A DNA stretch of 58,236 bases, from the IMG/VR virus record IMGVR_UViG_3300024344_000011, positions 1-58,236 of that record; one strand, 5' to 3'. Shown here piece by piece: positions 1 to 56,668 of the stretch. Each line of letters begins with the position of its first letter. Position 1 is the stretch's first letter. A program made the position numbers and the translations under genes. Origin of the DNA: a virus. Its lineage: Duplodnaviria > Caudoviricetes. A model generated the notes under the pieces. It was not told the DNA's origin and searched no databases. It was given only the letters and a program-made list of their open reading frames with translations.

Positions 1-152
1 ACCATATCAAATGGTCTATTTTCTCCACTCATTATATATCTTTCGCTATCACAATTAGGACAAACGCCACTATCACTCCAACCACTCATTTTGCTCTCCT
101 TATGTATTTATGAATTTCGCAATCTAACTCTAACATTTTACTTAAAACTTGT
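1..152. repeat. Terminal direct repeat, left copy (circular assembly overlap)
   Basis: 1-152 matches 58085-58236 except A127 vs G58211. Confidence 0.95.
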
Positions 153-325
153 CGGGCATCTTCACTCACAGAAAAATTATCATGAAAATCTACTAACTCG
201 CCAAGCGTCAAATTTTCTTTAATGACCAGGTTATAAATGTTATTGTCATAAAAATCTTTTATGAATTGTTTGAAGATATTATCCAACTTTTTTTCATAGC
301 TGTTATATGTTGTAAATCTATTCAT
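86..325 (-). CDS. hypothetical early protein
   Basis: 79 aa; coupled by start/stop overlaps to neighbours in the leftward operon. Confidence 0.7.
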   Translation of the reverse strand: MNRFTTYNSYEKKLDNIFKQFIKDFYDNNIYNLVIKENLTLGELVDFHDNFSVSEDARQVLSKMLELDCEIHKYIRRAK

Positions 326-918
326 TTACTCCCCCATTGTTCTATTGCACTATTAAATTCCATTAGCCCGTCATCGCCATATAAACCAAAACACGAATCA
401 ATCCACTCCCAATCTTCTTCTGCGAGGTTATCGGCTACACTCTGATAATAAGGTAAATTACATTTGTTTACTTTTTGTGAAATCTGAATACCCCAAGTAT
501 CTCCCGTTAGAAAGGCATTGTATCTTTCTATATCACAAGATAATCCTAATTCAGCGAGGGCTAAATCTTTCTCTGATAACTCTCCTTTGATACTTTGTTG
601 TTCTCGAATTTGGTCATGTGTTATATAAATAACCCCAACACAACCACTATCCCATTGGCAACCAGGAGAAGTAGTCATGCTTAATCCTCCATGATCATGA
701 AGGTATAAAGGTTTCCATAAAACATTATCCGTGCTGATAAATTCTTTTAATTCTTCCTCCGTAAAATCCTCCTCATGTGGTAAATCATAACGGCTATGAA
801 AACACACCATAGTCGTATCATTCGTCCATTCAATTCTAGGATTCTCGGCATAAGCATCATGTATTAGTTCTATCTTGTAACTATACGAATCGTTTTTTAC
901 AATTTCTTCTCTACTCAT
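322..918 (-). CDS. conserved phage/MGE early protein (NPR-W...HSRY...LYLHDHGG...WDSG family)
   Basis: Motif set recalled from mobile-element leading-region/polyvalent proteins; ATG at 918 preceded by AAGGAAAG. Confidence 0.7.
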   Translation of the reverse strand: MSREEIVKNDSYSYKIELIHDAYAENPRIEWTNDTTMVCFHSRYDLPHEEDFTEEELKEFISTDNVLWKPLYLHDHGGLSMTTSPGCQWDSGCVGVIYITHDQIREQQSIKGELSEKDLALAELGLSCDIERYNAFLTGDTWGIQISQKVNKCNLPYYQSVADNLAEEDWEWIDSCFGLYGDDGLMEFNSAIEQWGSK

Positions 919-1159
919 TATCTTTCCTTTCATTCATTTCATTAACAATATCTGCTCTATCTTCTAATAAGATTTCAACTTCCTCCACCAAGCTATTAAA
1001 AATATCTTGACCTTTTTCGGTAAAAGAAATTACTTCATCTTCTTCTATGGTATATTTTTCATAATCGTCCCCATATCTTTCTTGCATAATCCAATCTGCT
1101 ATATCACAAGTAAGTTCAATATATTGGTCGGAGGATAATAAAATTTTTTCTTTACTCAT
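911..1159 (-). CDS. hypothetical acidic protein
   Basis: 82 aa, RBS-like AAGGGG, overlapping neighbours. Confidence 0.75.
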   Translation of the reverse strand: MSKEKILLSSDQYIELTCDIADWIMQERYGDDYEKYTIEEDEVISFTEKGQDIFNSLVEEVEILLEDRADIVNEMNERKDNE

Positions 1160-1365
1160 TTGTTTTCCCCTTTCAACTCTGTAAGTTCTTTTTCTAAGTT
1201 CTCAATTTTTTCTAGTCTAATCTCTTCGACTAGGAGACCTACTAATTTTTTAGCTATGGAAATATTTTGCCAATCTTTCTCCCACCACATTTCCTCTTCC
1301 CATTTTGATACACCATGAGTAGATTTAATTGCCTTCACTATTAATTCTTTATCTTCTAAGTTCAT
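1156..1365 (-). CDS. hypothetical protein with C-terminal coiled coil
   Basis: 69 aa, GGAGG RBS. Confidence 0.75.
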   Translation of the reverse strand: MNLEDKELIVKAIKSTHGVSKWEEEMWWEKDWQNISIAKKLVGLLVEEIRLEKIENLEKELTELKGENK

Positions 1366-1367
1366 AA

Positions 1368-1511
1368 TTATTCCTCCAACTCCTCTAACTCTCTTTTAAT
1401 TCTTTTCGTTTCTGATTGATGGTATTGCAAATCTTCTTTAAGTTCTTTTTTGTAATTATTCATGGAGCTTTCTTCAGTCCATTCCACAAACTCAATTTTT
1501 TCTTCGGCCAT
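1368..1511 (-). CDS. hypothetical 47-aa protein (not in ORF track)
   Basis: MAEEKIEFVEW...ELEE*; fills the operon gap with TAATG coupling. Confidence 0.65.
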   Translation of the reverse strand: MAEEKIEFVEWTEESSMNNYKKELKEDLQYHQSETKRIKRELEELEE

Positions 1512-2065
1512 TATTCTTGCTCCCTTAACTCTGTATATCTTTCTGCAAATCTTGGTGTCTTATGAGTAATTAACCAAGCAAAAGGTAATGCTTTAACTTT
1601 GTGATTCAAAGTATTCCATTCTTCTATGTCGGCTACATACTCTTTCGTAAAGTTCTCTTGTATATCGTCATAACCAAAAAAACCTAACAAAGCTCCTAAT
1701 AGTTCTGACTGATTATAAGTTAATGCTATGACCTGAGTTAAATCACGCTTTTTTACCGGTTCGTTTTGAGATACCAAACTGTTTATGTGATTTTTTATAG
1801 AATCAATTCTATATTGCAAACTATCGTCAAGTTCGTCCCAAACTTTATCAACATTGGGCATTTTGTTTTTTTCAATTATCTCGGTTTGTTGGGATACTGA
1901 AACAATAGCCGACAATACTTGAAACTGACTGTAAGTAAATGTTGTATAGGCAAGTTTATGTTCGTTGTTTCTATCTTGGTCTTTATAATTTATAAAATCA
2001 GTAATCTTCCTTTGAAGCTTTACATGACCAGGAACTTTCTCATTCTCTGTATATCGACTAGCCAT
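1511..2065 (-). CDS. hypothetical protein with internal duplication
   Basis: Likely start MASRYTE after GAGG; two TY[SN]Q..L.A...W..L units. Confidence 0.7.
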   Translation of the reverse strand: MASRYTENEKVPGHVKLQRKITDFINYKDQDRNNEHKLAYTTFTYSQFQVLSAIVSVSQQTEIIEKNKMPNVDKVWDELDDSLQYRIDSIKNHINSLVSQNEPVKKRDLTQVIALTYNQSELLGALLGFFGYDDIQENFTKEYVADIEEWNTLNHKVKALPFAWLITHKTPRFAERYTELREQE

Positions 2066-2426
2066 TGTTTGCCTCTCTTTCGTTTTTGATTTCTTGTTCT
2101 CTTTTAGTTTGTGGAAAATCACAATACACATAAAGGTTACTTAATATTCTTCCCTCTCTAGTCTTAAGACTACAAGGTGTATCCCCTTTTTCTATTCTTT
2201 GGTAATCTTCAATAGGCATTTCTTTTAATACCCACTCCACAATTTTATTATACTGAATCCATTGTGGCATTTGTTGTATGTCAAAAATTCTGACTGTGGT
2301 TACAAAGTTATCACAAGTATTACAAACCCGTGATCCCTCGTCCGTGAGTAGAGGATACGGATTATTACCTAAACCCTCTATTTCTTCTTCACATAATTTA
2401 CATTTATTTTCTTTTTTAGACTCCAT
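2058..2426 (-). CDS. Zn-finger-like hypothetical protein
   Basis: CKLC...GNNPYPL...CNTC. Confidence 0.75.
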   Translation of the reverse strand: MESKKENKCKLCEEEIEGLGNNPYPLLTDEGSRVCNTCDNFVTTVRIFDIQQMPQWIQYNKIVEWVLKEMPIEDYQRIEKGDTPCSLKTREGRILSNLYVYCDFPQTKREQEIKNEREANNG

Positions 2427-2870: not shown

Positions 2871-2949
2871 TATATAATTTATTTAATTAATAATTGAGTA
2901 AACGCCACCGATAGAGTAAACTAGCCAGGTGAAAGGAAGAGGAACAATC

Positions 2950-3456
2950 ATGGTAGGCAATAAGAGAAAAGCAAATGTCAAGGCAGTAGCAAATGAGCCG
3001 ACAAGTTTGGACGCCAAATTGACAGAAAAGGAAATGAGATTTGTAGAGCATTATGTAAAAGATAATCTCTCTCAAACGGAGTCGGCAAGACGAGCCGGTT
3101 ACGACCATGCAAGACAAGAGGGATATAGACTGATAAGAAGAAAACACGTAGCCGACAAGATAGTAGAAATGCAAGACGATTTAAGACAACGGGCTAGGAT
3201 TACACCTGAAAGGTCTTTAAATGATTTAATGAAAATTAGAGATAAGGCATACCAGGAGGGATCATACAATGCCTCAATCGGAGCAGAAAAATTACGATTA
3301 CAGATAGCCGGATTGTTAGTTGATAAGAAAGAAATTAAGACAGGAAAGATAGACCAAATGACAAGAGAAGAGGTCATGAAAGAATTAGAAAAGTTACACG
3401 CAATTGCTGAAGAGAATACGATAGATATTACAGCTACTTCCACCGAAACTGAATGA
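2950..3456 (+). CDS. terS: terminase small subunit
   Basis: LTEKEMRFVEHY...NLSQTESARRAGY HTH typical of TerS; alternative start GTG 2929. Confidence 0.85.
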   Translation: MVGNKRKANVKAVANEPTSLDAKLTEKEMRFVEHYVKDNLSQTESARRAGYDHARQEGYRLIRRKHVADKIVEMQDDLRQRARITPERSLNDLMKIRDKAYQEGSYNASIGAEKLRLQIAGLLVDKKEIKTGKIDQMTREEVMKELEKLHAIAEENTIDITATSTETE

Positions 3457-3568
3457 GTGTAAACAAGTTTACAAATGTTTACTAAAACTAGGGCCATTAC
3501 ATAAAACTCTAGGAATAAACCAGGGGGGTGGGAGGCTTCCCCTCCCCCGAAAAAAAATTGAGATACAA

Positions 3569-3609
3569 GTCGGGGCATATGTAGTCGGGACACACATTAG
3601 TCGGGACAC
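3569..3609 (+). repeat. GTCGGG tandem motif cluster 1
   Basis: GTCGGG at 3569, 3584, 3600; TAGTCGGGACAC twice. Confidence 0.85.
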
Positions 3610-3717
3610 GTATAAAACCAAAACTAAAACCTATCAGTTCAAGTTTAAGTTCTAAAAGTCCTAGCCAGGGGAAGGCCAAGTCCTAGCTAGACCGGCTTAA
3701 AACCAGGGAATGTTTCT

Positions 3718-3747
3718 GTTTACATTATGTAAACCATTTGGTAGATT
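3718..3747 (+). promoter_or_regulatory. sigma70-like promoter overlapped by a palindrome
   Basis: TTTACA(3719)-17-TAGATT(3742); GTTTACAT-T-ATGTAAAC at 3718-3734. Confidence 0.7.
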
Positions 3748-3798
3748 CATAATCAGAAAGACTACCTTCGTAGTCTAGTTAATGGGAGTTAACATAAC

Positions 3799-4092
3799 AT
3801 GGCTAAATCAGCTACACACAAAATAACTTTATTTCAAACTGACTTAAATAGAATTAACAGAAGTATTAAAGAAATCCAGGAGAGTGAACCGGAAGGAACA
3901 AGCCTCTTTTACATGGAAATACCATACGATGTTGATAAGAAAGAGTTAGGTGATGTGTTTGTGTTTCGCACTACACTTAAAGAAGAAACCGAAGAGTATG
4001 AAACACGCATAAGTAAAACTTGGAAATACGAGGATTACGAAATTACCTTGACTGACCATTACGAAACGAAAGACATAAAACTTTCTGATTAG
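3799..4092 (+). CDS. hypothetical early protein (cassette 1)
   Basis: 97 aa, GGGAG RBS, own promoter and terminator. Confidence 0.85.
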   Translation: MAKSATHKITLFQTDLNRINRSIKEIQESEPEGTSLFYMEIPYDVDKKELGDVFVFRTTLKEETEEYETRISKTWKYEDYEITLTDHYETKDIKLSD

Positions 4093-4112
4093 TAGAAGAA
4101 CTTCTAGAAGAG

Positions 4113-4147
4113 GCCCCGACTCGTCTTGACCTGTCGGGGCTTTTTTT
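4113..4147 (+). terminator. rho-independent terminator
   Basis: GCCCCGAC...GTCGGGGC stem followed by T7. Confidence 0.85.
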
Positions 4148-4329
4148 GTGCCTTTTCTCCAGGAAATCTCCGGGTGTCGGGACATACGTAAAAGAGTCGG
4201 GATTCATGTAAAAGACCAGGTGGTTCTCCGGGTAATATAACAGATCACCAATTATTACATTACCTGGAACCCGGCCAGGCGCCTCGAGGTTACCGGGTAG
4301 AAGGCCTTTGCTCCAGGAAAGAAAGTTGG

Positions 4330-4373
4330 TTTACATTCTCTTGAGGTTGTGTTATGGTTTACATATTGTTAAC
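4330..4373 (+). promoter_or_regulatory. sigma70-like promoter with downstream near-palindrome
   Basis: TTTACA(4330)-17-TATGGT(4353) with TG extension; GTTTACATATTGTTAAC 4357-4373. Confidence 0.7.
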
Positions 4374-4394
4374 TATTAAAGGGAGTTAAAAACA

Positions 4395-4589
4395 ATGACA
4401 AATAACTTAAATAAAATTTACTTTACTTATCTAGACGAACTGAGAGGTTCCGGGGAAACCAATATGTTTGGCGCTCCGTCTTATCTTATTTCTGAATTTG
4501 GAATCGATAAGAGGGAAGCCATGGACATTACGTCAGCATGGATGACCTGGGTATCTAATGGTCGTCAAATTGAAGAGGTGGCATCATGA
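4395..4589 (+). CDS. conserved small phage protein (LDELR.SG.TNMFGA family)
   Basis: Widespread phage early-gene motif; GGGAG RBS. Confidence 0.85.
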   Translation: MTNNLNKIYFTYLDELRGSGETNMFGAPSYLISEFGIDKREAMDITSAWMTWVSNGRQIEEVAS

Positions 4590-5023
4590 CAACATCATTG
4601 AATCCATTTCCAAAGGGTTTTTTAAAGGAAACTTTTCAAGGCCCGAAGAAAAAAACGAATCGCGATCTGAGTTGTGAAGAAAGAGTCGACGAATACTTAG
4701 CCGACAGACTCCAAGATATAAAGGAGTTTGCCCAGGAAGGTTTTTCATCTGATGATTTTTTTGAATATGGCTTATCTGTTGATTATGTTGAGCCGTTCAC
4801 ATTCGGAGATGACCAGGAAGAAGGATACTTACGTTATCAATTATCGTGGGGTGGCCCTAGCGATGAATTTAGGTTTTATCAATTACGAACTGAATACTGG
4901 TTCCTGGATTGGCATGACGGAGCATCAAGGGACGTATCCCAGGAAGATGATATTATAGAATTAAAATCTTTCTTTAATGATTGCGGTTATTTCGATCCAA
5001 GTTTTGAGGGGGCATCATTATGA
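4586..5023 (+). CDS. conserved acidic phage protein (YLRYQLSWGGPSDEFRF family)
   Basis: ATGA coupling; motif recognition. Confidence 0.85.
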   Translation: MTTSLNPFPKGFLKETFQGPKKKTNRDLSCEERVDEYLADRLQDIKEFAQEGFSSDDFFEYGLSVDYVEPFTFGDDQEEGYLRYQLSWGGPSDEFRFYQLRTEYWFLDWHDGASRDVSQEDDIIELKSFFNDCGYFDPSFEGASL

Positions 5024-5298
5024 GTCAACCATCAATAACTTTAGAAGAGGCCAAAAAACATATCGATAAAATGAACAATGAAAGTCTATATAATTTCATT
5101 GACCAACGCCGGGGGGTTGATAGTCTCATGCTAGAATATGCAAATGAGGTAGCCACCAGGCGACTAGCGAAAGAACACGCTATGTTATGGAAAGGCCAAA
5201 AGTTTAAGGACGAACCACTCCAGGACATTATCGATCGCAAGAATAAAGAGTCACAAGATTTTCTTAATGACCATATAGAGATCGTGCATATCAAATAA
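5020..5298 (+). CDS. hypothetical protein
   Basis: ATGA coupling, GAGGGG RBS. Confidence 0.8.
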   Translation: MSQPSITLEEAKKHIDKMNNESLYNFIDQRRGVDSLMLEYANEVATRRLAKEHAMLWKGQKFKDEPLQDIIDRKNKESQDFLNDHIEIVHIK

Positions 5299-5316
5299 AC
5301 AAGGTTAACTCCGGGG

Positions 5317-5348
5317 AAAAGGCGAGGCTAATAACTTCGCCTTTTTTT
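5317..5348 (+). terminator. rho-independent terminator
   Basis: AAAAGGCGAGG...CTTCGCC followed by T7. Confidence 0.8.
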
Positions 5349-5497
5349 GTGTCGGGAATCCAGGTCGGGAGTCGGGATACGCATCATAGACCTGGCCATG
5401 TATTAACCAGGAATAGATAATATATATAATAAACAAAACTTGGGCCATGTGGTTGCTAGTCATGATCTAGGTCATTTAAATTAAGTTAAGTAAATAG

Positions 5498-5527
5498 TTG
5501 CAATTATCATTTTTATTTTGTTATAAT
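5498..5527 (+). promoter_or_regulatory. strong sigma70-like promoter
   Basis: TTGCAA-18-TATAAT with TG extended -10. Confidence 0.8.
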
Positions 5528-5551
5528 AGGTCATTAACAACGGAGATTAAA

Positions 5552-5944
5552 ATGAGATTAAAAGAAAAGATAACCTTAATAACTGAGAACAAAGGTAACG
5601 CAAGAATTTGGATACAAGGCGATACCGATGTTGAAAATCATGGCTTTACTGACGGACAAGTATTCACCGTTAGTTATGGAGACTCACAAATTGTCTTACA
5701 GCTTACAGGATTGAAAAGACAAAAAGGTATGCGAGTCGACAAAGAGTTTAAGCGTAAGCATAACTTACCAAAGAACACTATGAAAGTGAGTAAGACTGAG
5801 AGAGGTTCAACGATTGATATTGGCAACAAGTTTGTTACAATGGTTGCGGTTGACAATAACAAGATTGGCAATTTTATTCCTTACAAGCTTAAGAATAACA
5901 AAGACTCGAATCATAACAGCATGGTATTCATGTTCGATAAGTAA
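5552..5944 (+). CDS. AbrB/SymE-like fold protein resembling the N-terminal domain of ICE/plasmid C5-MTases
   Basis: ATG 5552 after GGAG; ENKGNARIWIQG...GF..G..F.V.Y and KVSKTERGSTIDI patterns. Confidence 0.6.
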   Translation: MRLKEKITLITENKGNARIWIQGDTDVENHGFTDGQVFTVSYGDSQIVLQLTGLKRQKGMRVDKEFKRKHNLPKNTMKVSKTERGSTIDIGNKFVTMVAVDNNKIGNFIPYKLKNNKDSNHNSMVFMFDK

Positions 5945-5965
5945 CCGAATCACATACCGAATCAG

Positions 5966-45696: not shown

Positions 45697-47738
45697 GCTC
45701 CTGTTGTAAATTCTCCATCTCCTTCTGCAAATGGGCCATCGGGAACATCTAACCACTTCTTACTTTTTGATCCTAAAGCCATAGCTTTAACAATTCTATT
45801 TGTATCAATTAAAGTTTGAACCATGTCTTGAAGATTGTTTATACCTCTATCATGAAAACGAGGTGTCAATCTTTCTTTATGATAAGCAATACCGTTTGCT
45901 CTTCCTGTTTGTGTAAAGGGTTTACCTTCGTAAGCAGCTTGTTTAATACACATAACTAATTCTTGTAGATCTATTTCTGTTCCGTGACGAGCCATACCGA
46001 GTTCCTCACTGCAACCTTCTAACAAACCATTTTTTGTGTTTCTTAAAAAAGTTCTTATCTCTCTGTTAGCAGGGCCATTTGATTTAACAACAGCTCCATG
46101 AGCAACTCTATTTCTTCTAAAGTCCACCCCTAAAGTTTTGCATATATATTTCATTTCACTTTCAGGAGGAGTCCACATAGCCATAGCAAATCTTAGACCA
46201 TCTACGATAGCAGAAGTTCCCCGAATAAGATTTCTTGCGTGTTCAGGTGTTGTGACGGGGTGTTTCATATCTACCTTAGCCATGTGATGTATTATTAACC
46301 AGGTTGCATTGGTTTCGGTTGATAGACTAGCAAAATATCCTGTTACAAAACTACCCATAGCCGGATCAGCATTTATATCGGCATAAACAAAAGAACTTAG
46401 TGGATCAATAACAACAAGAACTACATCTTCAATTTTTTTTATTTGGTCGCATATATTTCTCCATTCAGGAGTAATTTGTGGTCTGCCTTTTTCAACAGTA
46501 ACAATTGGAACTGTTCCTCCGTAATTAGGAAAAGGAATAATTTTTAAATCATGTCCTGTCTCTCTAAACCGATAACCTTCGTCATCTAACGAATCAATTC
46601 TTCTATGTATCTCGTCTGCCTCATCCTCAGCAGTCATTATAACAACTGAACCATTTTTAGTAATAGGGCTATCAAATACTCTATCTCTTCCCGGAGTTCC
46701 ATAAGCAAGTTTTAAACCCATATCTAAAGTTAACAGACCTTTACCCGTATCGCCCTGAGCCGCTAAAACTCCTGCAACACCTTGTGGTAAAGTTTCTTCT
46801 ATCAAATATTTATAAGGAGGGGCAGTGCCTCTAGTGTACTTAGAAGCTGATAAAGTTTTATCAAGAAGGTTAATAACTTTTCTATCGCCTTCTTCTAATG
46901 ATAAGAAATTATATATATTAAAGTTTTCTGTTACAGCATCAGCGGCATCCCAACCCTTGGGTTTTCCTTTATGTGGTTGTAATACTCTGACTGATTTACA
47001 AAAACCTATAAGATAGGTAGCAACTGATTCAGCATATTTTAAACCAGGTTCATCGTTATCAGGCCATATGATAATGTCTTTGTTTTCCAAAGGAGACCAA
47101 TCGGTTTTATCAAGAGGAGCAGATGATCCGGCCATAGCAGAAGTAGCTACATAGTCTTTTAAAGTAAGCGCATCTACACACTTTTCTCCTTCAACTATTA
47201 TAATATTATCTGAATTAGCTACTTTAGAAAGATTATAAAGTGGACGAACAGACGGCATTTTATAATCGCCATTAGCTAATTGAGGTAAAAAAGTTTTATT
47301 GCCATCATTAAACTCTTTTCTAATAACCGTGCAAACCAGGTTGCCATGAATATCTGTATAAGGATACTCAGCAACAACCCTTCCTTTTTCTTTTGTTGGT
47401 TGTTTTGGAGGAGGGGTATATTCAATAGGATTATTTACTCCTAAAAATTTTCCTATATCTTCAATGGCTTCGACAAAGTTAACATTCTTTTTATACTTCC
47501 AAACCTCAATGAAGTCTGAAAACATTCTGTCTTTATCTGAGGTATTAAACTCTCCTCCTACACCATTTTTAGAAGGATCAAGACTAAAAGAAACAGATTG
47601 GCCCCTACTACCATCTAAATCTCCAATAACAAATTCTGTCCCAATAACTTTACCAGCCGGGAAAAGATGAAAATATATATCGGCTAGTCTGCTAGAGCAT
47701 TGTCTTTTGAATTGATCTATCTCCCTATTCTGCTCCAT
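45693..47738 (-). CDS. primase-helicase (TOPRIM plus RepA/AAA_25-like helicase)
   Basis: VEGEKCVD, WPDND, GWDAAD; AQGDTGKG, AEDE, VIDPL, IIHH, RGTSA. Confidence 0.9.
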   Translation of the reverse strand: MEQNREIDQFKRQCSSRLADIYFHLFPAGKVIGTEFVIGDLDGSRGQSVSFSLDPSKNGVGGEFNTSDKDRMFSDFIEVWKYKKNVNFVEAIEDIGKFLGVNNPIEYTPPPKQPTKEKGRVVAEYPYTDIHGNLVCTVIRKEFNDGNKTFLPQLANGDYKMPSVRPLYNLSKVANSDNIIIVEGEKCVDALTLKDYVATSAMAGSSAPLDKTDWSPLENKDIIIWPDNDEPGLKYAESVATYLIGFCKSVRVLQPHKGKPKGWDAADAVTENFNIYNFLSLEEGDRKVINLLDKTLSASKYTRGTAPPYKYLIEETLPQGVAGVLAAQGDTGKGLLTLDMGLKLAYGTPGRDRVFDSPITKNGSVVIMTAEDEADEIHRRIDSLDDEGYRFRETGHDLKIIPFPNYGGTVPIVTVEKGRPQITPEWRNICDQIKKIEDVVLVVIDPLSSFVYADINADPAMGSFVTGYFASLSTETNATWLIIHHMAKVDMKHPVTTPEHARNLIRGTSAIVDGLRFAMAMWTPPESEMKYICKTLGVDFRRNRVAHGAVVKSNGPANREIRTFLRNTKNGLLEGCSEELGMARHGTEIDLQELVMCIKQAAYEGKPFTQTGRANGIAYHKERLTPRFHDRGINNLQDMVQTLIDTNRIVKAMALGSKSKKWLDVPDGPFAEGDGEFTTGA

Positions 47739-48486
47739 CTACATCCCAACATCTTTTACTAAATTCACAAAACCTACAATTAAAATGGTCTCTGTCAAAA
47801 GCTACTCGTGGCATTAACTCTTGAGCATCAGTAGCCTTAAGTATTAAAGCCGCCTTATCAGAGCATTCTTGAGCAAACTGTGAATCAAATAAAACCCTTT
47901 CATGGTATATCTCTTGTGTATTTTTATTAACAACTGTAAAGAGAGCCGGATTTTCTGTTAATCCCATGTAATATTGATAAACAACTATCTGAGCAAAATA
48001 AACCTTGTTAGTTTTTGCTACTCCATTTTTTTTAAATTTTTTCCAATTGCTATCGTTAGCTGATTTGCATTCCCAAAGATACGGATAGTCTTCCTCAAAA
48101 GGACTAGCCATAATGATCCCGTCAACATGGCCCTTTATTCTGTCATTGTAATGAGAAAAACCAAACTGTTTACCCGTTTTATCTTTTTCTCTAACACTAA
48201 AACCTGCTTTGGTAAGCCACCCTATAGCCATATCTTCAAAAGCATTCCCTGTTCCAAATATTCTGAGTGTTCTTCCCTCAAAATGTTTATCAGGTTCAAG
48301 TCCTAACAACCGATATTGTAATTTTCTTTTACAATCATCACCTATACTAGAACCACCAATATATTCTCGTCTTGGCTGTTGTTGATTATCTTTCTCTAAT
48401 TTATCATCTATAATTTCGTTAATCTCGTCAGAAATATCCCCAACAAGTTTATTTAATTTTATCTTTTTTTCTTCTGATTTTAACAT
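47725..48486 (-). CDS. Cas4-like PD-(D/E)XK exonuclease
   Basis: GSSIGDDC, GHVDG, WECKS, Q...Y, C-terminal CRFC...RC Fe-S cysteines. Confidence 0.85.
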   Translation of the reverse strand: MLKSEEKKIKLNKLVGDISDEINEIIDDKLEKDNQQQPRREYIGGSSIGDDCKRKLQYRLLGLEPDKHFEGRTLRIFGTGNAFEDMAIGWLTKAGFSVREKDKTGKQFGFSHYNDRIKGHVDGIIMASPFEEDYPYLWECKSANDSNWKKFKKNGVAKTNKVYFAQIVVYQYYMGLTENPALFTVVNKNTQEIYHERVLFDSQFAQECSDKAALILKATDAQELMPRVAFDRDHFNCRFCEFSKRCWDVDGAE

Positions 48487-48512
48487 TAAGGATCTTCCTC
48501 TTTCCTTTTGCT

Positions 48513-49025
48513 CTAGAACGGGATTTCATCATCGTAAGGTTCGTAGTATTTTTTATTCTTACCTTTTCCCGTAACTTTTACTTTTCTTCCCTCGATAACT
48601 TCATGCCCTTTTTCTGGAACCTCTAGGCCATTTACATTCATAAACTCTTCCACACCTTCAGGGTTATCATCACTGATTCGTATATGTAAGTTATCTCTAT
48701 AACCATTAATTATTTTTACAACAAAATCAATAACTTCCTGTTTTTCTAAATCGTTAAAAGATTTATCAAAACCTATCTCCTCAAACATTGGCAGTAATGT
48801 ATTTTTAACAGTATCAATTACAGCTTCATACTCTGTATCTGTTCCTTTATAATCCATATTGTATCCTATATTTTTAGAAAAAAAATTTTGTCCGTCTCTG
48901 CATCCAAACCAAGCTATCGGAATAGATCGAGAAAAATCATGATAACCATAATTATGATAACCCAGGCTATGACATAATCCACAGACACGTTTTCCTCTTT
49001 TTTCTTTTACACAACTTTTAAACAT
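48513..49025 (-). CDS. replication-module protein with SSB-like C-terminal tip
   Basis: CGLC N-terminus; ends YDDEIPF. Confidence 0.7.
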   Translation of the reverse strand: MFKSCVKEKRGKRVCGLCHSLGYHNYGYHDFSRSIPIAWFGCRDGQNFFSKNIGYNMDYKGTDTEYEAVIDTVKNTLLPMFEEIGFDKSFNDLEKQEVIDFVVKIINGYRDNLHIRISDDNPEGVEEFMNVNGLEVPEKGHEVIEGRKVKVTGKGKNKKYYEPYDDEIPF

Positions 49026-49091
49026 TTGAAAACACCCGAGTAAACCCTGTCAACAAACCAGAGATTTATGGATTTACCCAGGTGCCACTTA

Positions 49092-49391
49092 CTACAACCC
49101 AAATTCAGATTTCTTCTGAGAGGCATAAGAGGTAGCGCAACCCATGGCTTTTGCTACTTCTGTTACCGTTTTACCCTCCGAGAAAAGCGTGCGAAACCTT
49201 TCTAGTTTTTCCTCGTTAGGCTTACGCCCACGAGTTTCTATATTGGGTATTTCTCCTGAATCTATCTTTCCCTGCAATGAGCCAATAGTATGTTCAAGTT
49301 TTTCTGTAACTTTACCAATATCCTGATAAGCTTTTTGCAAACTTTGAATATCTTTTTTAACCTGAGAGGCCGTTAGTTTATCGCCTCCCAT
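49092..49391 (-). CDS. coiled-coil plus HTH DNA-binding protein
   Basis: RGRKP...EGKTVTEVAKAMGCATSYAS. Confidence 0.75.
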   Translation of the reverse strand: MGGDKLTASQVKKDIQSLQKAYQDIGKVTEKLEHTIGSLQGKIDSGEIPNIETRGRKPNEEKLERFRTLFSEGKTVTEVAKAMGCATSYASQKKSEFGL

Positions 49392-49393
49392 AA

Positions 49394-50050
49394 CTATATA
49401 CCAAAGTCGGCTGCTTTCGAGGCTGCTGTAGCTGTATTCCCGGTTGGTTTCACAACCTCAGCCTTTTTCTCAAAAGTTTTAGTTGAAGTGTCTACAACCT
49501 TGTTAGTAAAGTATTGAGCAAAGTCTGCATAACGAGGATCATCAGCAGTAATTACACCTTGCCAAGGATTAAAAGTATTTTTATCTCCATACTCAGCATT
49601 CGGCTCTATCTCCACATCAACAACAGCATTCATACCTTCAAGTTCAGCATAAGAACATTTTCTTAAATTCTTAGCTTTTTCAGATACATCGTCATGCTCA
49701 AGGCCGTAATGTGATTCTATCAATCTTCTGACTATTAAATTAGAAAAAGTAACACTCTTTTGTTGCCCCTCACTTAATGGAGCGCCATAGACATTCATGT
49801 TTTTCCAAAATTTTCTTGTAGAAAAATCAGGGCTTATAACCGTAAAACATAATGCAAAATAATGTAGTGGGCTTGCTCCTGACTTCCTGTAGAAATTTGG
49901 AATAAACTCCCCATTAAACACATCCATGTTTTCAGGATGTTCTACTGTATTGTTTCGATCAATACTTATTTCCACAGCATAAAGTCCAGGTGGTAATGGG
50001 GTATTGTCACTTGTTTTGGTTTCTGTTTGAAATTCATTAAAATCAGGCAT
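49394..50050 (-). CDS. putative ssDNA-binding protein
   Basis: PLPPGLY...F.V...RKFW...YGDKN; adjacent to Sak4-like gene. Confidence 0.7.
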   Translation of the reverse strand: MPDFNEFQTETKTSDNTPLPPGLYAVEISIDRNNTVEHPENMDVFNGEFIPNFYRKSGASPLHYFALCFTVISPDFSTRKFWKNMNVYGAPLSEGQQKSVTFSNLIVRRLIESHYGLEHDDVSEKAKNLRKCSYAELEGMNAVVDVEIEPNAEYGDKNTFNPWQGVITADDPRYADFAQYFTNKVVDTSTKTFEKKAEVVKPTGNTATAASKAADFGI

Positions 50051-50867
50051 TCTTTTTCTCCTTAGTTTGCGTTGGTAATAATTTTGTTAATAATTGTTTT
50101 AAGTTAGGCTCTTCATAAGTCTGAAGTTTACCTGAACGGTCTTTTGCCGGATAACCGAAATCATTATCTGTAGTACAAATAAATTTTCTTGATCGTGATT
50201 TATGGCCATCTTTGTCGACTTCATCAACAAAGGCATAAGTAATAACTTGATCGACAATACCGGGAAGTTCCCTAGATATTTTTTGGCCTTCAAGCTGTAA
50301 GGCATAAACGGGTTGTCCTAAATCATCTTGATACTCATCAAGAACAGAACAGAATATGACATTCTTATTACGGGTATGCTGTAATTGAATAAGCCATTCC
50401 ATTAACTCTCTACCTATTTGTCCATAACAACCTCGAGTATCAAGTGCGCCTGTCTTCGTAAAATTTTGTGGATTTTGTTGAGCCGCTAGTAAAGCTAATC
50501 GAGCCGCAACAGTTATCGAATCAACAAATAAAGTCTTTGATTTCTCAATAGCTTCTTTTACATCAGCCATTTGTTCACTACAGACATCATAATGCGCTTG
50601 GCTATACTTTGCCTTTGGATTTTGAATAGCCGGATTAAATCCACCAGCTAAACAAGCGATAGCTTGACACTGCGCCCAAGTTCGAGGTTGCAATGTATTT
50701 CCTTTAAAATCTCCGACAGCTAAATCTCCGGCTTCTAGGTCTATAAATAATGTGTGACGAGGATCTAAATGAGTAAGTAATGTTGTTTTACCAATACCAG
50801 GCTTGCCTGTAATTACGGCCTTTACTCCTGTAAATTGTTTGTTTCTTTCTTCTGCATTAACTAACAT
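50043..50867 (-). CDS. Sak4-like AAA ATPase (ssDNA annealing)
   Basis: GKPGIGKT, DLEAG, FVDSIT, AKDRSG; start ATG 50867 after AAGGAGG. Confidence 0.85.
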   Translation of the reverse strand: MLVNAEERNKQFTGVKAVITGKPGIGKTTLLTHLDPRHTLFIDLEAGDLAVGDFKGNTLQPRTWAQCQAIACLAGGFNPAIQNPKAKYSQAHYDVCSEQMADVKEAIEKSKTLFVDSITVAARLALLAAQQNPQNFTKTGALDTRGCYGQIGRELMEWLIQLQHTRNKNVIFCSVLDEYQDDLGQPVYALQLEGQKISRELPGIVDQVITYAFVDEVDKDGHKSRSRKFICTTDNDFGYPAKDRSGKLQTYEEPNLKQLLTKLLPTQTKEKKNA

Positions 50868-51150
50868 TATTGCCCTCCTTATATTGTTCGTAAGATAAAT
50901 CTGCATAGTATGCCTCAGCATTTTCTGCTTCTTCAATTGGATCTAAAACCAATTCTCTAAATAAATCTTTAAAATCCGAATCAGACAAAGCGTCTAACTC
51001 TTCTTTATTTTTGTTTGTTAATTTTTCGTGATTAGCATTGTGTAAAGATTTAAAATCTCCAAGCAACCATTCTGTTGCAGATTTTCTATCTGATACCATA
51101 TCATTAAAATCTTCTTCAATTTGCATAATCCAATTTTTTGTTCCGCTCAT
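50857..51150 (-). CDS. hypothetical protein
   Basis: MSGTKNWIM; AAGGAG RBS. Confidence 0.75.
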   Translation of the reverse strand: MSGTKNWIMQIEEDFNDMVSDRKSATEWLLGDFKSLHNANHEKLTNKNKEELDALSDSDFKDLFRELVLDPIEEAENAEAYYADLSYEQYKEGNNVS

Positions 51151-51151
51151 G

Positions 51152-51637
51152 TTAAGCTCCTTTATAAGTGTAAGTAATTTTTTCAGAAATTTTCTTTGTT
51201 CTTGATTTTTTTAATACTTCTTGAGCTGTAGGTTCGAGGGCATTAAATTGGGAGGCCGGAACAGATAGTTTAAATATTTTTCTCATCTGTTTCGGGGGAT
51301 AGCTTTTACATAAACAATCGTAAGCTTTCCAAATCTGCTCATCATCATATGAGATAGATGAACCAAGTTTAGCAGTAAGCTTAGAGCCGTCTTCTATAGT
51401 AAAAGTATGAGAACCATCATCCTTCTCTTTTATAGCCAACTCAGATTGCAACCTTTGTCCGTATGTCCTGTCTAGACACCGATCAATATTCTCACTAGCC
51501 ACTTTAGCCATTCGGCTTATCCTCCCTAACTGCTCTTTTTTAGTAAGCAGTTCGTCAGTAGAACAATTAGTTAAATTAGTATCTTCCTGAAATATCAATT
51601 TAGCTATTTCAGCATTATTAAAATCATTTGAAGTCAT
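51152..51637 (-). CDS. hypothetical replication-module protein
   Basis: 161 aa, first gene of the operon. Confidence 0.75.
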   Translation of the reverse strand: MTSNDFNNAEIAKLIFQEDTNLTNCSTDELLTKKEQLGRISRMAKVASENIDRCLDRTYGQRLQSELAIKEKDDGSHTFTIEDGSKLTAKLGSSISYDDEQIWKAYDCLCKSYPPKQMRKIFKLSVPASQFNALEPTAQEVLKKSRTKKISEKITYTYKGA

Positions 51638-51776
51638 AGTAAAATCCTAAAAAAAGTTAAAAATTAATTAAAATATAATTGCTAATATAATTATTAAGTA
51701 AATAAAGTCAAGCGTAGAAATTTTTTTTATCTGTTTTTTACTTAACAGATTCCACTCCCGACCAATGTTTTGTTCA

Positions 51777-51977
51777 CTATTCTATAGGGGAATAAATGGG
51801 CTGACGCTTTATAATCAGGTAGTTTTCAGGTTCACTGACGTGTTCCGCAACTACTCCGTGAGCTGCCAAAGGATAATCTCTTTTATAATAATCAATATCT
51901 CTTTTTGAAGGGATATATGATTGAGCTATTATCCTTCCCGTATAGTCATGCCATATAACAGGCACTTGAGCATTCAT
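51777..51977 (-). CDS. hypothetical protein
   Basis: 66 aa, AAGGAG RBS. Confidence 0.65.
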   Translation of the reverse strand: MNAQVPVIWHDYTGRIIAQSYIPSKRDIDYYKRDYPLAAHGVVAEHVSEPENYLIIKRQPIYSPIE

Positions 51978-52007
51978 AACTTTCTCCTTGTAAAAAAATC
52001 AAATTAT

Positions 52008-52026
52008 GTTTACATATTATGTAAAC
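52008..52026. promoter_or_regulatory. palindromic operator between divergent genes
   Basis: GTTTACATA-T-TATGTAAAC. Confidence 0.7.
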
Positions 52027-52047
52027 CTTACATGAGAGGAAATAAAA

Positions 52048-52287
52048 ATGCAAGATGTAAACAGTTATTCAACTGCCAGGATATATACTAAATCATTAGC
52101 AAAAGCTCGTCTGCTTGCTAAAGATCAAAAGAAAAGTCAAATAAGAATAATAGAAGAAGCTATCAATCTTTTATGGAGCGATAAAATGAACCAAGAAGAA
52201 CCGATAGATATTATGGAACATTTACCTGAAGAAAAATCCACTGGGAGAGGGATTGAGAATGCGTTCAGCAACAGCAGAAAAGATTAA
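52048..52287 (+). CDS. small ribbon-helix-helix-like regulator
   Basis: YSTARIY strand, then two helices (LAKARLLAK, QIRIIEEAINLL). Confidence 0.55.
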   Translation: MQDVNSYSTARIYTKSLAKARLLAKDQKKSQIRIIEEAINLLWSDKMNQEEPIDIMEHLPEEKSTGRGIENAFSNSRKD

Positions 52288-52816
52288 ACCAAATAAAAAG
52301 TTACGAGGCTTAGAGTTATTTGCCGGGATTGGTGGTATGACTTTAGGTTTTGAAATGGCTTATGGAGAAGACTATGAATGCGTGGCATTTGTAGAGAGAG
52401 ATAAATATTGTGGAAAGGTTTTAAACAAACATTGGAGCGATGTTCCAATATATACAGATATAAGGGAATTTGATTATGACAAAGAAAAAGACAGACTCGG
52501 AAGAATTGACATTGTTCTCGGAGGTTTCCCATGCCAACCCTGGTCAGGGGCAGGAAAGCAACGAGGGGCGCAAGATGACCGAGACCTCTGGCCTGAAATG
52601 TTACGAGTTATTAAAAGCATCACGCCCCGACCTAGATGGATCATTGGCGAAAATGTGCAAGGCTTTGTTAACATGGAGATGGGACTCTCCCGCACGGTCT
52701 CTGATTTGGAAAATGAAAACTACCAAGTCCAACCATTCGTATATGGCGCTGTCGCCGTCCAGGCAAGGCATCAAAGGCAACGGTGTTTCGTTGTGGCCCA
52801 CTCCAAGAGCGACTAG
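52253..52816 (+). CDS. C5-cytosine DNA methyltransferase, catalytic part (motifs I-VIII)
   Basis: LFAGIGG, DI, GGFPCQPWS, ENV, HQRQRCF; stops just after motif VIII. Confidence 0.9.
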   Translation: MRMRSATAEKIKPNKKLRGLELFAGIGGMTLGFEMAYGEDYECVAFVERDKYCGKVLNKHWSDVPIYTDIREFDYDKEKDRLGRIDIVLGGFPCQPWSGAGKQRGAQDDRDLWPEMLRVIKSITPRPRWIIGENVQGFVNMEMGLSRTVSDLENENYQVQPFVYGAVAVQARHQRQRCFVVAHSKSD

Positions 52817-53723
52817 CCGTATGGCATATAGGGAGAAACCTTCCCCTTCTATGATCAATGGAACACATGGTTGGAGTCTTAATGCAGCTGTTACAGATAG
52901 CATGAGTGATACACCACATAGAATGTGGAATACTCCTACAGCTTTTGATTCGGGTAATCCTAATACACAAGAAAAAATAGATAAAGAAGCCAAAACAAAT
53001 AGAAAAGGCAGAGACAAACCAGGTCACTTAAAAGAAGAGGTTATGGTTGAAGAGGGTTTAAGAATGTGGCCTACAGACAATTTAATTCCTACTCCTGTTG
53101 CGACTGATCACCAAGATAATCCGGCTGAACAATTAGAAAATTGGAAGAAGAGAGCTAAAAAGAAAAAAGAAGAAGGAATAAACTTACAGTTTGCTCTTCG
53201 TCATTATGTGCAAATGTATCCCACTCCTACTGCAAGAGATTACAAAGGAGCAAGAAAGCCTGAAACATTAAAAAAGAAAGGCCGAACCGAAACAAACTCT
53301 TTACCTGATAAAGTGAGAGCATTAGAAGACCATAGAATGTGGCCCACTGCGAGAGCCGCTCTAGGTATGAATATGAAAACAACTGAAGGCATGGCAAAAC
53401 TCAGACATAAAGGATATTTAGAAACAGAAGTAGCCCATGTTCATATACACGAAGAAAAAAAAGAGCCTGTGGGAGCATTAAATCCTCCATGGGTTGAATG
53501 GTTAATGGGGTTTCCGATTGGTCATACCTCCATCAATGAAGATATTACATACAATATGGAGGTAGATTATTGGGGGGAAGAACCTCCTATATCAAGAGTA
53601 GCTGTAGGGGTAAAAAATAGAAAAGATAGATTGCGTTGTTTGGGGAATGCTGTTGTTCCTCAATGTTTAGCTGTGATAGCTGAATGTATTAAAGAGGTAG
53701 AAGATGAAGAAAACAATAATTAG
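52476..53723 (+). CDS. C5-cytosine DNA methyltransferase, second part (tandem TRD-like modules, motifs IX-X)
   Basis: AAGGGA RBS at 52462; five PT[PA].A modules; LNPPWVEWLMGFP and RLRCLGNAVVPQ. Confidence 0.85.
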   Translation: MTKKKTDSEELTLFSEVSHANPGQGQESNEGRKMTETSGLKCYELLKASRPDLDGSLAKMCKALLTWRWDSPARSLIWKMKTTKSNHSYMALSPSRQGIKGNGVSLWPTPRATSRMAYREKPSPSMINGTHGWSLNAAVTDSMSDTPHRMWNTPTAFDSGNPNTQEKIDKEAKTNRKGRDKPGHLKEEVMVEEGLRMWPTDNLIPTPVATDHQDNPAEQLENWKKRAKKKKEEGINLQFALRHYVQMYPTPTARDYKGARKPETLKKKGRTETNSLPDKVRALEDHRMWPTARAALGMNMKTTEGMAKLRHKGYLETEVAHVHIHEEKKEPVGALNPPWVEWLMGFPIGHTSINEDITYNMEVDYWGEEPPISRVAVGVKNRKDRLRCLGNAVVPQCLAVIAECIKEVEDEENNN

Positions 53724-53880
53724 CTTAGTGATTCTTTTAGGAGGGTGTAATGCAACGGGAGTATCTAATTGCGATGTGCCTATTCATATAGGAACTGCAT
53801 ATAACAGCGAGGGACAAATGGTTATTTTAGAAGTTGAAGAACCAGGGTGTCCACGCATTGATACTTTTAAGGATTTCTAA
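53704..53880 (+). CDS. small lipoprotein (not in ORF track)
   Basis: MKKTIISLVILLGGC lipobox; GAGGT RBS; 58 aa. Confidence 0.7.
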   Translation: MKKTIISLVILLGGCNATGVSNCDVPIHIGTAYNSEGQMVILEVEEPGCPRIDTFKDF

Positions 53881-53881
53881 A

Positions 53882-54454
53882 ATGATTCCTTTTCCAAAAA
53901 AGAAATACAATGTTATCTATGCTGATCCACCATGGCACTATCAAACATGGGGAGAGGGAAGTAATCGGAATGTAACCTCTAAATACGATACTATGTCTCC
54001 AGAAGAAATCTTTAAACTTCCTGTTAGTGATTTAGCAGATGAAGATTGTGTTTTGTTTATATGGGTAACTTTTCCCAAATTACTAGAGGGAATAAAAACT
54101 ATAGAAGAATGGGGATTTACCTACAAAACCCTTGCGTTTAACTGGGTAAAAACAAATAAAAAACTTAAAACGAATCAGACCTCTTTCTTACCTATGGATA
54201 GCTTTGATACCTTTTGGGGCTTAGGATATTGGACGAGAGCCAACAGTGAATTGTGTCTATTAGCTACAAGAGGAAAACCTAAGCGTGAATCCTGTAAAGT
54301 CCATCAGCTTGTCTATGAGCCTGTTCGGGAACATTCAAGAAAGCCGGATTGTGTCCGGGATAGAATTGTAGAACTCATAGGCGATGTTCCTCGTATCGAA
54401 TTGTTTGCTCGTCAAAAAGCTAACGGTTGGGATAATTGGGGTAACGAACTTTAA
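53882..54454 (+). CDS. MT-A70 family adenine methyltransferase
   Basis: YADPPW, LFIWVT, WGFTY, GLGYWTR, EHSRKP, IELFAR. Confidence 0.92.
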   Translation: MIPFPKKKYNVIYADPPWHYQTWGEGSNRNVTSKYDTMSPEEIFKLPVSDLADEDCVLFIWVTFPKLLEGIKTIEEWGFTYKTLAFNWVKTNKKLKTNQTSFLPMDSFDTFWGLGYWTRANSELCLLATRGKPKRESCKVHQLVYEPVREHSRKPDCVRDRIVELIGDVPRIELFARQKANGWDNWGNEL

Positions 54455-54457
54455 AAA

Positions 54458-54502
54458 ACTCAATATGTTGACGAAACCGGGTTAATACACTACATCTAGT
54501 GT
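54458..54502 (+). promoter_or_regulatory. promoter overlapped by two NrdR-box-like sites
   Basis: ACTCAATATGTTGACG (54458) and ACACTACATCTAGTGT (54487); TTGACG-17-TACATC. Confidence 0.55.
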
Positions 54503-54504
54503 AT

Positions 54505-54651
54505 GTGGACGGTAGGACTCTACTTTTGATATATGTCTTCCTCTCTATCATATGTCATCCACGGATTGCAGCCACTTGTAATGCCTGGTCTGTATGGACT
54601 GGGCATTACTTTTTACAGGGGAATATATGGCCCACGATAACCAAGCCATGA
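54505..54651 (+). CDS. possible 48-aa membrane peptide (not in ORF track)
   Basis: GTG start just after the promoter, hydrophobic N-terminus, ATGA-coupled to the next gene. Confidence 0.4.
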   Translation: MDGRTLLLIYVFLSIICHPRIAATCNAWSVWTGHYFLQGNIWPTITKP

Positions 54652-54989
54652 AGAGTAATATCACGAGAGGGGTAAGGGCAGAATTATTAGCGGCTGAGTG
54701 GTTGATAGAACAAGGCATATGGTCTTTTATTCCCATGTCGGCTCAAGGCCCGATTGATTTAGTCGGAGTAGACAAAGACGGAATAGTTTATTTATTTGAT
54801 ATAAAAGTTCAATCCCGAAGAAAAAACGGAACAAAAATATCTAGGTCTTTAAAACCCAACCAAAAAAAATTAGGCGTCCAACTGTTGTATGTTGATCTTA
54901 AAGCTAAAGAAATATTCATTGGAGGATCACAGAAGAAAGGCACGGACGGACAATTCTTAAGCCAAAAGAAATTCCTAAAAAAGAAATGA
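54648..54989 (+). CDS. PD-(D/E)XK nuclease, Holliday junction resolvase-like
   Basis: RG..AE.....WL...G...GPIDLV...FDIK; start uncertain (54594-54648). Confidence 0.75.
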   Translation: MKSNITRGVRAELLAAEWLIEQGIWSFIPMSAQGPIDLVGVDKDGIVYLFDIKVQSRRKNGTKISRSLKPNQKKLGVQLLYVDLKAKEIFIGGSQKKGTDGQFLSQKKFLKKK

Positions 54990-55692: not shown

Positions 55693-55741
55693 ATAAAACG
55701 ACTTTAATATCTTGTAATTACATTTTTTTTGTGTCAGGCGA

Positions 55742-56659: not shown

Positions 56660-56668
56660 TTTTTTCTC

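Follow-up and report, generated by a model that had tools for sequence, protein, structure and literature searches.

Strand-polar CCAGG repeat arrays beside terS in an uncultured marine podophage

Short restriction-type palindromes are usually purged by phages. In the virus record IMGVR_UViG_3300024344_000011, analysed here over its whole length of 58,236 bp (36.1% GC; hereafter the window), such a word, CCAGG, is tenfold enriched in an island that adjoins the small terminase subunit gene terS, is written there into rare codons, and lies on one strand across genes of both directions in the early part of the genome. The question raised by this locus is what reads the word. An initial annotation of the sequence had described the island as saturated with CCWGG and CCSGG, and had proposed either a methylation-gated switch of packaging or early expression, read through a C5 cytosine methyltransferase (C5-MTase) of the phage itself, or a decoy for CCNGG-recognising defences. 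Our analyses show that the CCAGG excess is real and that the phenomenon is larger than described there: what is new is that the word is strand-polar, is specific to the lineage and forms arrays beside the terminase genes. As judged from its sequence, the pattern clearly points to a DNA signal that acts in cis and is sensitive to direction.

All the sites listed by the initial annotation between 3520 and 5411 (15 CCAGG, 4 CCTGG and 7 CCSGG) were found where it had placed them, beside terS as it had said, and their number is approximately ten times that expected. The whole window contains 83 CCWGG (59 CCAGG and 24 CCTGG) and 32 CCSGG. When 83 sites were placed uniformly, 19 of them never fell together in any 1,892-bp window in 20,000 trials, the highest number reached being 14. 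Between 3457 and 5553 (2,097 bp, 39.1% GC), CCAGG is the top enriched 5-mer, with 15 copies for 1.64 predicted from the rest of the window (Poisson P 2.8e-10) and 1.0 expected from base composition. The three intergenic stretches hold 11 CCWGG for approximately 0.9 expected, and the second of them (module B, Table 1) holds 5 for 0.40 under shuffling. The signal seems to be confined to the 5-mer: no clear additional information was detected around 74 CCAGG sites of the early region and 50 of the island. A second word, missed by the initial annotation, is even more enriched than CCAGG: GTCGGG was observed 9 times for 0.22 expected, and 7 of the 8 copies of GTCGGGA in the window lie in three clusters directly past the terminators.

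The enrichment also holds when the encoded proteins are kept constant. The four open reading frames (ORFs) of the island contain 8 CCWGG, versus 1.90 in 5,000 within-gene synonymous shuffles (SD 1.2; P = 2e-4) and 0.51 when the codons are resampled by the phage's own codon usage, so that the excess remains significant under the codon-preserving control. The main coding signal comes from ORF 4586-5023 (4 versus 0.78) and ORF 5020-5298 (2 versus 0.15); neither ORF 3799-4092 nor ORF 4395-4589, which have a single site apiece, reaches significance by itself under synonymous shuffling. The codons that the initial annotation had called uncommon are rare in the late genes (GCC 9%, GAC 22%, TCC 5%, CTC 2%, CAG 15%). 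Related loci occupy the same place with another cargo, a GP88-family gene unrelated to the cassette ORFs of the window, and this gene is also rich in CCWGG relative to synonymous shuffling (11 versus 3.5 in the related locus L008, 9 versus 1.55 in the related genome G001). Among 31 distant GP88 homologues, only 19 CCWGG were counted for 37.7 expected, and the word is missing altogether from 22 of these genes. GP88 being saturated here and depleted in its distant homologues, the enrichment is a property of the locus and not of the protein; since the unrelated cassette ORFs and GP88 are both CCWGG-rich, selection acts on the DNA. The codon-preserving tests in the window and in its relatives thus support the DNA-level selection, written into the codons, which the initial annotation had inferred.

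The plus-strand bias of CCAGG (15 CCAGG to 4 CCTGG in the island) continues into the flanks, in agreement with the initial annotation. The record is a circular assembly (see below), and across the circular junction the non-structural arm from 45697 to 5551 (17.9 kb) carries 38 CCAGG versus 6 CCTGG on the + strand; CCAGG density climbs towards one end of this arm, and the island is its dense end. This arm-wide polarity of CCAGG, which the initial annotation had missed, is independent of gene direction. On the + strand, the three leftward gene blocks have 17 CCAGG versus 0 CCTGG, the rightward early blocks 21 versus 6, and the rightward late genes 21 versus 18; CCAGG is the top 5-mer for + strand excess in both the leftward and the rightward early blocks. 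Over-representation together with a uniform orientation independent of transcription is therefore found in the 17.9-kb arm only.

To place this polarity among relatives, the genome of the window is called G000, related genomes G001 to G003, and related loci or contigs are given L-numbers; G002 and G003, whose terS is 41% identical and which carry a different C5-MTase and no CCAGG arrays, served as comparison genomes. Under synonymous shuffling of the leftward genes, CCAGG was enriched and its inverse depleted in G000 (CCAGG 16 versus 7.2, P below 0.001; CCTGG 0 versus 3.8, P 0.008), where a second codon-preserving test gave the same outcome, and in G001 (14 versus 8.1, P 0.002; 0 versus 4.1, P 0.008). 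The same holds for L097 (CCAGG 10 versus 3.7, CCTGG 2 versus 4.5) and L098 (6 versus 2.8 and 0 versus 3.2). No CCAGG bias was detected in the leftward genes of G002 (CCAGG 2 versus 2.2, CCTGG 4 versus 2.8) or of G003 (2 versus 1.3 and 2 versus 1.6). At the leftward-gene sites, all eight Pro-Gly pairs use CCT GGN, and six sites use the rare Leu codon CTG (2% of Leu codons). Between G000 and G001 the individual sites turn over, their number and orientation being preserved. The comparison genomes show other words in the same orientation, TCGGG in both (13 versus 4.6 in G002, 11 versus 5.8 in G003) and GGTTC in G002 (15 versus 9.8); in both genomes, the enriched words coincide with those of the genome's own arrays. 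In G000 and G001, too, TCGGG is enriched in this orientation; its orientation is partly found in late genes as well, so it is partly a coding-strand effect.

The terS-terL interval contains small ORFs of no known family, and in it the two words are organised in three units. One to three very short ORFs, a promoter match of sigma-70 type and a hairpin-plus-T-run terminator make up each unit (Table 1). The arrays occupy the terminator-to-promoter gaps in all three modules. From the end of the last CCAGG to the TTTACA -35 hexamer there are 11 nt in module A (hexamer at 3719) and 12 nt in module B (hexamer at 4330), these promoters being called by consensus match only. CCAGG and GTCGGGA are joined in composite repeats, e.g., the 27-nt unit GAGTCGGGATTCATGTAAAAGACCAGG, present in 3 copies. 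Module A has, right after terS, a G/C-rich hairpin which starts with CCAGG and is followed by A8 rather than T8; it is kept in L008, G001 and L097 and forms no canonical terminator on either strand. The element agttcaagttta..tcctagCCAGG of module A is conserved in L008 and G001, and module C is homologous to the module that follows the GP88 gene in both.

Analogous islands were searched for among 80 terL-related loci from viral contigs, six of which (L002, L006, L008, L071, L075 and L080) reach at least 10 CCWGG in some 2-kb window. L002, L006 and L008 are closely related and have their GTCGGG clusters in the corresponding position; L071, L075 and L080, whose terL is 60-61% identical, are higher in GC (42-45%). 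Taken together with the other contigs, the island is present in four lineages, i.e., the window type (with the near-identical L002, L095 and L096) and three related ones, G001, L008 and L097, so that it has the counterparts in relatives which the initial annotation would have expected. In these three, the post-terS spacer contains 8 GTCGGG followed by 6-7 CCAGG(T) boxes on one strand, spaced by 20-26 bp and mostly by 22 bp, and the last box lies 11 nt before GTTTAC (gap measured by eye). In homologous boxes, CCAGG and CCGGG interchange. The arrays go with the terS type and are in this sense specific to the lineage: they were found in 3 of 3 contigs whose terS is at least 80% identical and in 0 of 23 at or below 43%. 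Direct repeats of one orientation with helical phasing are thus found in G001, L008 and L097, and arrays abutting a -35 element at 3719 and 4330 in the window and, by eye, in the three relatives.

A comparable design with another word was observed at the corresponding place of a more distant cultured relative, Pelagibacter phage HTVC027P (L082). Its region 4930-6180 belongs to a stretch with 23 GCTTG in 1.5 kb, versus 4 in the other 17.9 kb; tandem CAAGCY hexamers lie within gp32 and abut the -35 TTGACA of gp33 and of gp34, the promoters being TTGACA-N17-TATAGG and TTGACA-N17-TAGGAT, respectively. A transcriptome study of this phage places gp33 and gp34 in a separate temporal class (PMC12753301). 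Phage DSL-LC04 has CGTGG-type words at the corresponding place. At the place corresponding to the island in L016 (1260-1600), non-coding GGTTCGGG runs were observed with GC-rich palindromes and two runs of three TTAGGG, the vertebrate telomere unit, and some of these runs match the G-quadruplex pattern.

We tentatively favour, with substantial reservations, the view that the boxes are head-to-tail binding arrays of a clade-specific DNA-binding protein which would control the cassette promoters and act directionally. In this scheme, the CC(A/G)GG and GTCGGGA direct-repeat boxes, which fill the terminator-promoter gaps and end 11-12 nt upstream of -35, would seat a clade-specific phage protein on one helix face, adjoining RNA polymerase; this protein could set when, or how strongly, the cassette is expressed. 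Extra copies of the box are forced into the codons of the cassette genes, and the word has also been selected, at lower density and with unchanged orientation, over the whole 18-kb non-structural arm; the protein, or a machine loaded by it, may therefore act on the arm in a direction-dependent manner. The split C5-MTase of the phage (Table 1) might in addition methylate the boxes and modulate the binding. The binding of a protein to the boxes and the control of the promoters by them are what we infer from the direct repeats, their single orientation, their helical phasing and their end next to -35 before each cassette, as well as from the same design, with another word, in HTVC027P.

The closest known systems are the promoter-upstream direct-repeat arrays of activators, such as the pho boxes bound head-to-tail by PhoB/OmpR-type proteins. 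Like these and like the CAAGCY arrays of HTVC027P, the boxes are short one-orientation repeats phased by whole helical turns and abutting -35; as in HTVC027P, the word is lineage-specific, the downstream genes of HTVC027P having their own timing. Unlike pho-box-type arrays, those of the window phage combine two words, and their word also occurs in coding sequence, in one orientation over an 18-kb arm.

Several observations weigh against binding arrays at promoters. Promoter-like matches are no more frequent between 2300 and 8600 than in shuffles (22 versus 20.2). The CCNGG boxes of the window itself are irregularly phased, the 22-bp array being found in the relatives only. Two findings would be better explained by a symmetric reader: at one homologous promoter position the window has CCAGG and L008 has CCTGG, and the orientation is mixed in the GP88 gene (CCAGG:CCTGG 6:5 in L008, 6:3 in G001). 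No cognate DNA-binding protein was identified, the cassette ORFs having no family and the fold prediction of the border ORF having failed. Lastly, control of promoters alone explains neither why sites lie within ORFs nor why the polarity extends through 12 kb of early genes that point leftward; both of these require a reader able to tell strands or orientations apart independently of transcription. Candidate readers are TerS and ORF 49092-49391, which has a weak HTH_7 match; ORF 52048-52287 is suspected, by eye only, to be a ribbon-helix-helix protein.

Table 1. Coordinates of the island, its modules and the other features of the window that bear on the CCAGG word
Feature	Position	Strand	Description
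terS	2929..3456	+	Pfam Terminase_2, E 5.3e-12; PHROG 51, E 3e-18; directly upstream of island
Module A	3457..3798	+	hairpin-A8 3520-3558; GTCGGG 3569, 3584, 3600; CCAGG 3520, 3665, 3703
Module A promoter-like site	3719-3747	+	TTTACA-17-TAGATT with TG
Cassette ORF, 97 aa	3799..4092	+	no known family; one CCAGG at 3876
Module B	4093..4394	+	terminator stem 4123-4140 and T-run; 9 CCNGG in 160 bp (4159-4317); GTCGGGA 4176, 4196
Module B promoter-like site	4330-4358	+	consensus match
Three overlapping cassette ORFs	4395-4589, 4586-5023, 5020-5298	+	7 CCWGG in rare codons
Module C	5299..5551	+	terminator hairpin ~5322-5350 (by eye); GTCGGGA 5351, 5364, 5371; CCWGG 5360, 5391, 5407
Module C promoter-like sites	5403-5430, 5498-5527	+	consensus matches
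Border ORF, 130 aa, conserved	5552..5944	+	L008 and G001 orthologues 34% identical; followed by terminator 5964-5987
Left part of polar arm	45697..58236	+	replication, methylase and small early genes; CCAGG nearly + strand only
Small leftward early genes	1..2426	-	continuation of the arm via circularity; 3 CCAGG versus 0 CCTGG
Split C5-MTase	52253..53723	+	N-terminal half 52253-52816; C-terminal half ~52818-53723, in the other frame

A role in packaging is possible, if doubtful. The boxes may be pac arrays on which TerS assembles and which set the direction of headful packaging, and cytosine methylation might license the cutting. The P1 pac site is a cluster of Dam-site hexamers in the terS-like gene pacA and is cut only when methylated. 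The window resembles it in that a methylase-type word is clustered beside terS and methyltransferases, among them a C5-MTase, are encoded by the phage, and by module B, whose 9 CCNGG in 160 bp give a density like that of the P1 site. The arrays begin directly after terS in all four array-bearing lineages, and the uniform orientation of the boxes would give a direction. The word changes as terS diverges, the identity of terS being 80-83% in the relatives that bear the arrays and 41% in those that lack CCAGG arrays. This co-variation is however trivial, given the adjacency of terS and the arrays. The circular assembly, with no terminal repeat besides a 152-nt overlap inside genes, fits permuted, headful-packaged DNA. 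One compact site would be expected for pac, whereas three separate arrays and sites within ORFs are spread over 2 kb, and in the G002/L016 lineage the homologous repeat region lies approximately 4.7 kb upstream of terL and approximately 6 kb away from terS. The window further differs from P1 in that the word is of cytosine type (adenine type in P1), is distributed in three modules over 2 kb (approximately 160 bp in P1) and spreads with strand polarity through a genome arm.

The polarity itself suggests a broader interpretation, again a doubtful one, in which CCAGG and GTCGGGA would be a phage-borne polar genome word, analogous to Chi or to the FtsK-orienting polar sequences (KOPS). Such a word, proper to the lineage, stacked near terS and terL and sprinkled through the early arm, could be read directionally by a tracking machine (nuclease, terminase or loader) and would protect or steer the arm. 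A more specific version is unlikely: in it, a tracking enzyme, e.g., a host helicase-nuclease of the RecBCD/AddAB type that enters at a DNA end located rightwards of the island, would recognise CCAGG on one strand, and the arrays, being dense, would act as a barrier protecting the arm or the concatemer. Chi sites are the words of RecBCD and AddAB (5 nt in Bacillus subtilis), and KOPS orient FtsK. The CCAGG word shares with them its shortness, its G-richness and its over-representation, an orientation which is uniform regardless of gene direction, and a turnover of sites with number and direction kept. The enrichment of the + strand word with depletion of its inverse under codon-preserving shuffles in G000, G001, L097 and L098, the climb of density towards one arm end and the lack of a flanking consensus beyond the 5-mer are in agreement with this interpretation, as are the array words of the other lineages, which are also G/T-rich and lie on the same strand. 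It differs from Chi and KOPS in that the polarity concerns one third of the genome only, the late two thirds being without it, and in that the densest copies are phased arrays by promoters. The fixed composite units of CCAGG and GTCGGGA and the 22-bp phasing by -35 resemble a protein-binding architecture rather than a tracked word, and the mixed orientation in the GP88 gene is not expected of one. If true, the polar word would add to phage genomes a layer of directional grammar that has not been described before.

The view of the initial annotation, i.e., that the island is a methylation target, appears very unlikely. In that scheme the phage's own C5-MTase would methylate CCWGG or CCNGG and provide an epigenetic timer for expression or packaging, or the sites would be a decoy, a variant for which nothing was found in support. 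The split C5-MTase that it invokes is indeed encoded by the same genome in two frames: the N-terminal half contains motifs I-VIII (PF00145, E 3e-39), and the C-terminal half (PHROG 1008, E 5.8e-31) contains motif X as well as a long recognition part in which WPTP-like segments recur. The enzyme is split in the same way in G001, and stand-alone C-terminal halves of 300 and 336 aa are found in relatives. M.AquI is a naturally split C5-MTase made from two overlapping reading frames; the window enzyme is like it in having motifs I-VIII in one ORF and target recognition with motif X in an overlapping frame, with a split conserved in relatives, and unlike it in the length and the repeated 'WPTP' segments of its recognition part.

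The expected co-occurrence of island and split enzyme was only partly observed. An orthologous N-terminal half (72-78% identity) accompanies the island in G000, G001 and L097, the 3 of 3 cases where both regions are visible, and the two island-free genomes both carry a different C5-MTase (29-31% identity). The target-recognition half, however, is only 41-50% identical among the island bearers, and terS type co-varies with the island as well as the MTase does, which is a confounding factor. Nine contigs have homologues of the recognition half, and CCAGG bias was found in four of them (L095-L098, two being near-identical to the window); the other five have CCAGG:CCTGG counts of 5:12 (L099), 2:4 (L100), 0:0 (L101), 4:3 (L102) and 0:0 in 1.2 kb (L103). 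L101 (12.9 kb), with a 40%-identical homologue, contains no CCWGG whatsoever. Specificity could not be read from the enzyme either: a search of solved structures returned spurious repeat-protein matches only, and no specificity-giving name appears among the 120 homologues listed.

Word counts speak on both sides. Genome-wide, CCWGG is at twice its expectation in G000 and G001 and at expectation in G002 and G003; the relatives with a different C5-MTase, which are without the island, have instead approximately 3 times the expected CCSGG, and both orientations are enriched in the GP88 cargo gene. The use of CCAGG and CCTGG is not symmetric, as it would be for a Dcm/EcoRII-type target, since the ratio is 15:4 for the island and reaches 38:6 for the arm; strand polarity is meaningless to a methylase of CCWGG, which is symmetric. 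Together with the CCAGG/CCGGG interchange, with the three modules and with the spread of sites over 18 kb, this polarity makes a purely methylation-read signal a poor fit, and the link between the MTase and the island is equivocal.

An iteron-type origin is highly improbable; here an initiator such as the primase-helicase would be bound by the 22-bp-spaced direct repeats, which adjoin AT-rich DNA where divergent transcription begins. Iteron origins of plasmids and phages have direct repeats with a period of approximately 22 bp. This spacing, followed by AT-rich DNA, is found in G001, L008 and L097; the genome encodes a Toprim and AAA_25 primase-helicase (45693-47738), and the arrays of the L016 lineage lie within a divergent intergenic region. 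Nevertheless, the repeated core is 5-6 nt only and not an iteron of 17-22 bp, there are three arrays, each tied to a promoter, no initiator gene adjoins them, and GC skew follows gene orientation without any independent origin signal.

That the pattern has no function, being a by-product of a foreign cassette, of local GC or of very-short-patch-type repair, is disfavoured and hardly credible: the island is slightly richer in GC (39% versus 36%), forms a separate assembly unit in two runs and carries cargo genes that differ among relatives, but the enrichment persists under composition and codon controls, unrelated cargo genes are saturated at the locus while homologues elsewhere are depleted, relatives that lack the bias have no more CTWGG and CCWAG, and the polarity is present in four lineages. 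Very-short-patch-type repair was rejected as a cause on the counts of CTAGG, CCTAG, CTTGG and CCAAG, none of which is depleted versus G002 and G003.

The genome that carries the word is that of a complete, circularly assembled, uncultured marine podophage. Its first 152 nt are repeated as its last 152 nt (1-152 versus 58085-58236, 1 mismatch) across a gene junction; because of this end overlap, the record, labelled linear, is a circular assembly of approximately 58,084 bp. A self-overlap of approximately 75 nt was also observed in G001, inside the island. The gene set is that of a podophage, with terS, terL (8564-10045), an SU10-type portal and adaptors, the primase-helicase and two MT-A70 methylases. 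By terL, the nearest cultured relatives are phage DSL-LC04 (62% identity) and the Pelagibacter phages HTVC027P (61%) and HTVC023P (54%); a genome-collection scan gave distant terL matches only, in a contig binned with a metagenome-assembled genome (MAG) of Pelagibacter (58%) and in a Verrucomicrobia MAG (55%). At the nucleotide level, 2800-5700 matched none of 50,697 phage records, and no Rfam family was found on either strand of 2300-8600 up to E 0.1. In one viral-fraction run, terS and the island (2820-5805) form their own unitig at depth 17.2, the flanks being at 11.7-12.6, and a second run has 3499-5600 as a contig of its own. The breaks between unitigs, near 2820, 3500, 5600 and 5800, indicate a mosaic module only, and several strains seem to share the terS-island module.

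Among the cassette ORFs, 4586-5023 gives the sole family match of the three overlapping ones (PHROG 36747, function unknown). The border ORF has no family in profile searches; the AbrB-like look of its N-terminus is only a guess, the fold obtained from a 3-sequence alignment being unusable (mean predicted local distance difference test score, pLDDT, 35). Two other kinds of repeats were observed near promoters or in divergent regions, the palindrome GTTTACA-N3-5-TGTAAAC at 3718-3734 (overlapping the -35 of the first cassette promoter) and at 52008-52026 (before ORF 52048), and 3-4 copies of ATGGTTTAC boxes at 2626-2835 in the divergent region 2427-2928; both are probably operator sites.

Other words of the genome deviate from expectation as well. 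GGWCC is absent from the window for 39 expected, and its relative G001 has 44; this absence looks like avoidance of a GGWCC-type restriction system, in this strain only. CGCG (5 versus 62 expected) and ACGT (24 versus 192) are very rare in the window. ACAGG has 15 copies in 1.5 kb at 42501-44000 and, genome-wide, 81 copies in G000, 91 in G001, 42 in G002 and 19 in the shorter G003.

The DNA-level selection inferred by the initial annotation stands, and the mechanisms that it attached to the island, i.e., methylation, packaging and decoy, are candidates at most. The group that carries the signal consists of abundant and widespread uncultured marine phages; the stretch is present in runs from 12 studies. 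A rule for the whole group is suggested by the comparison genomes: the word of the arrays near the terminase genes recurs, in the same orientation, in the early genes (TCGGG in G002 and G003, GGTTC in G002). The identity of the reader would give either a new transcription-control module, the packaging signal of the group, or the first phage-specific polar word.

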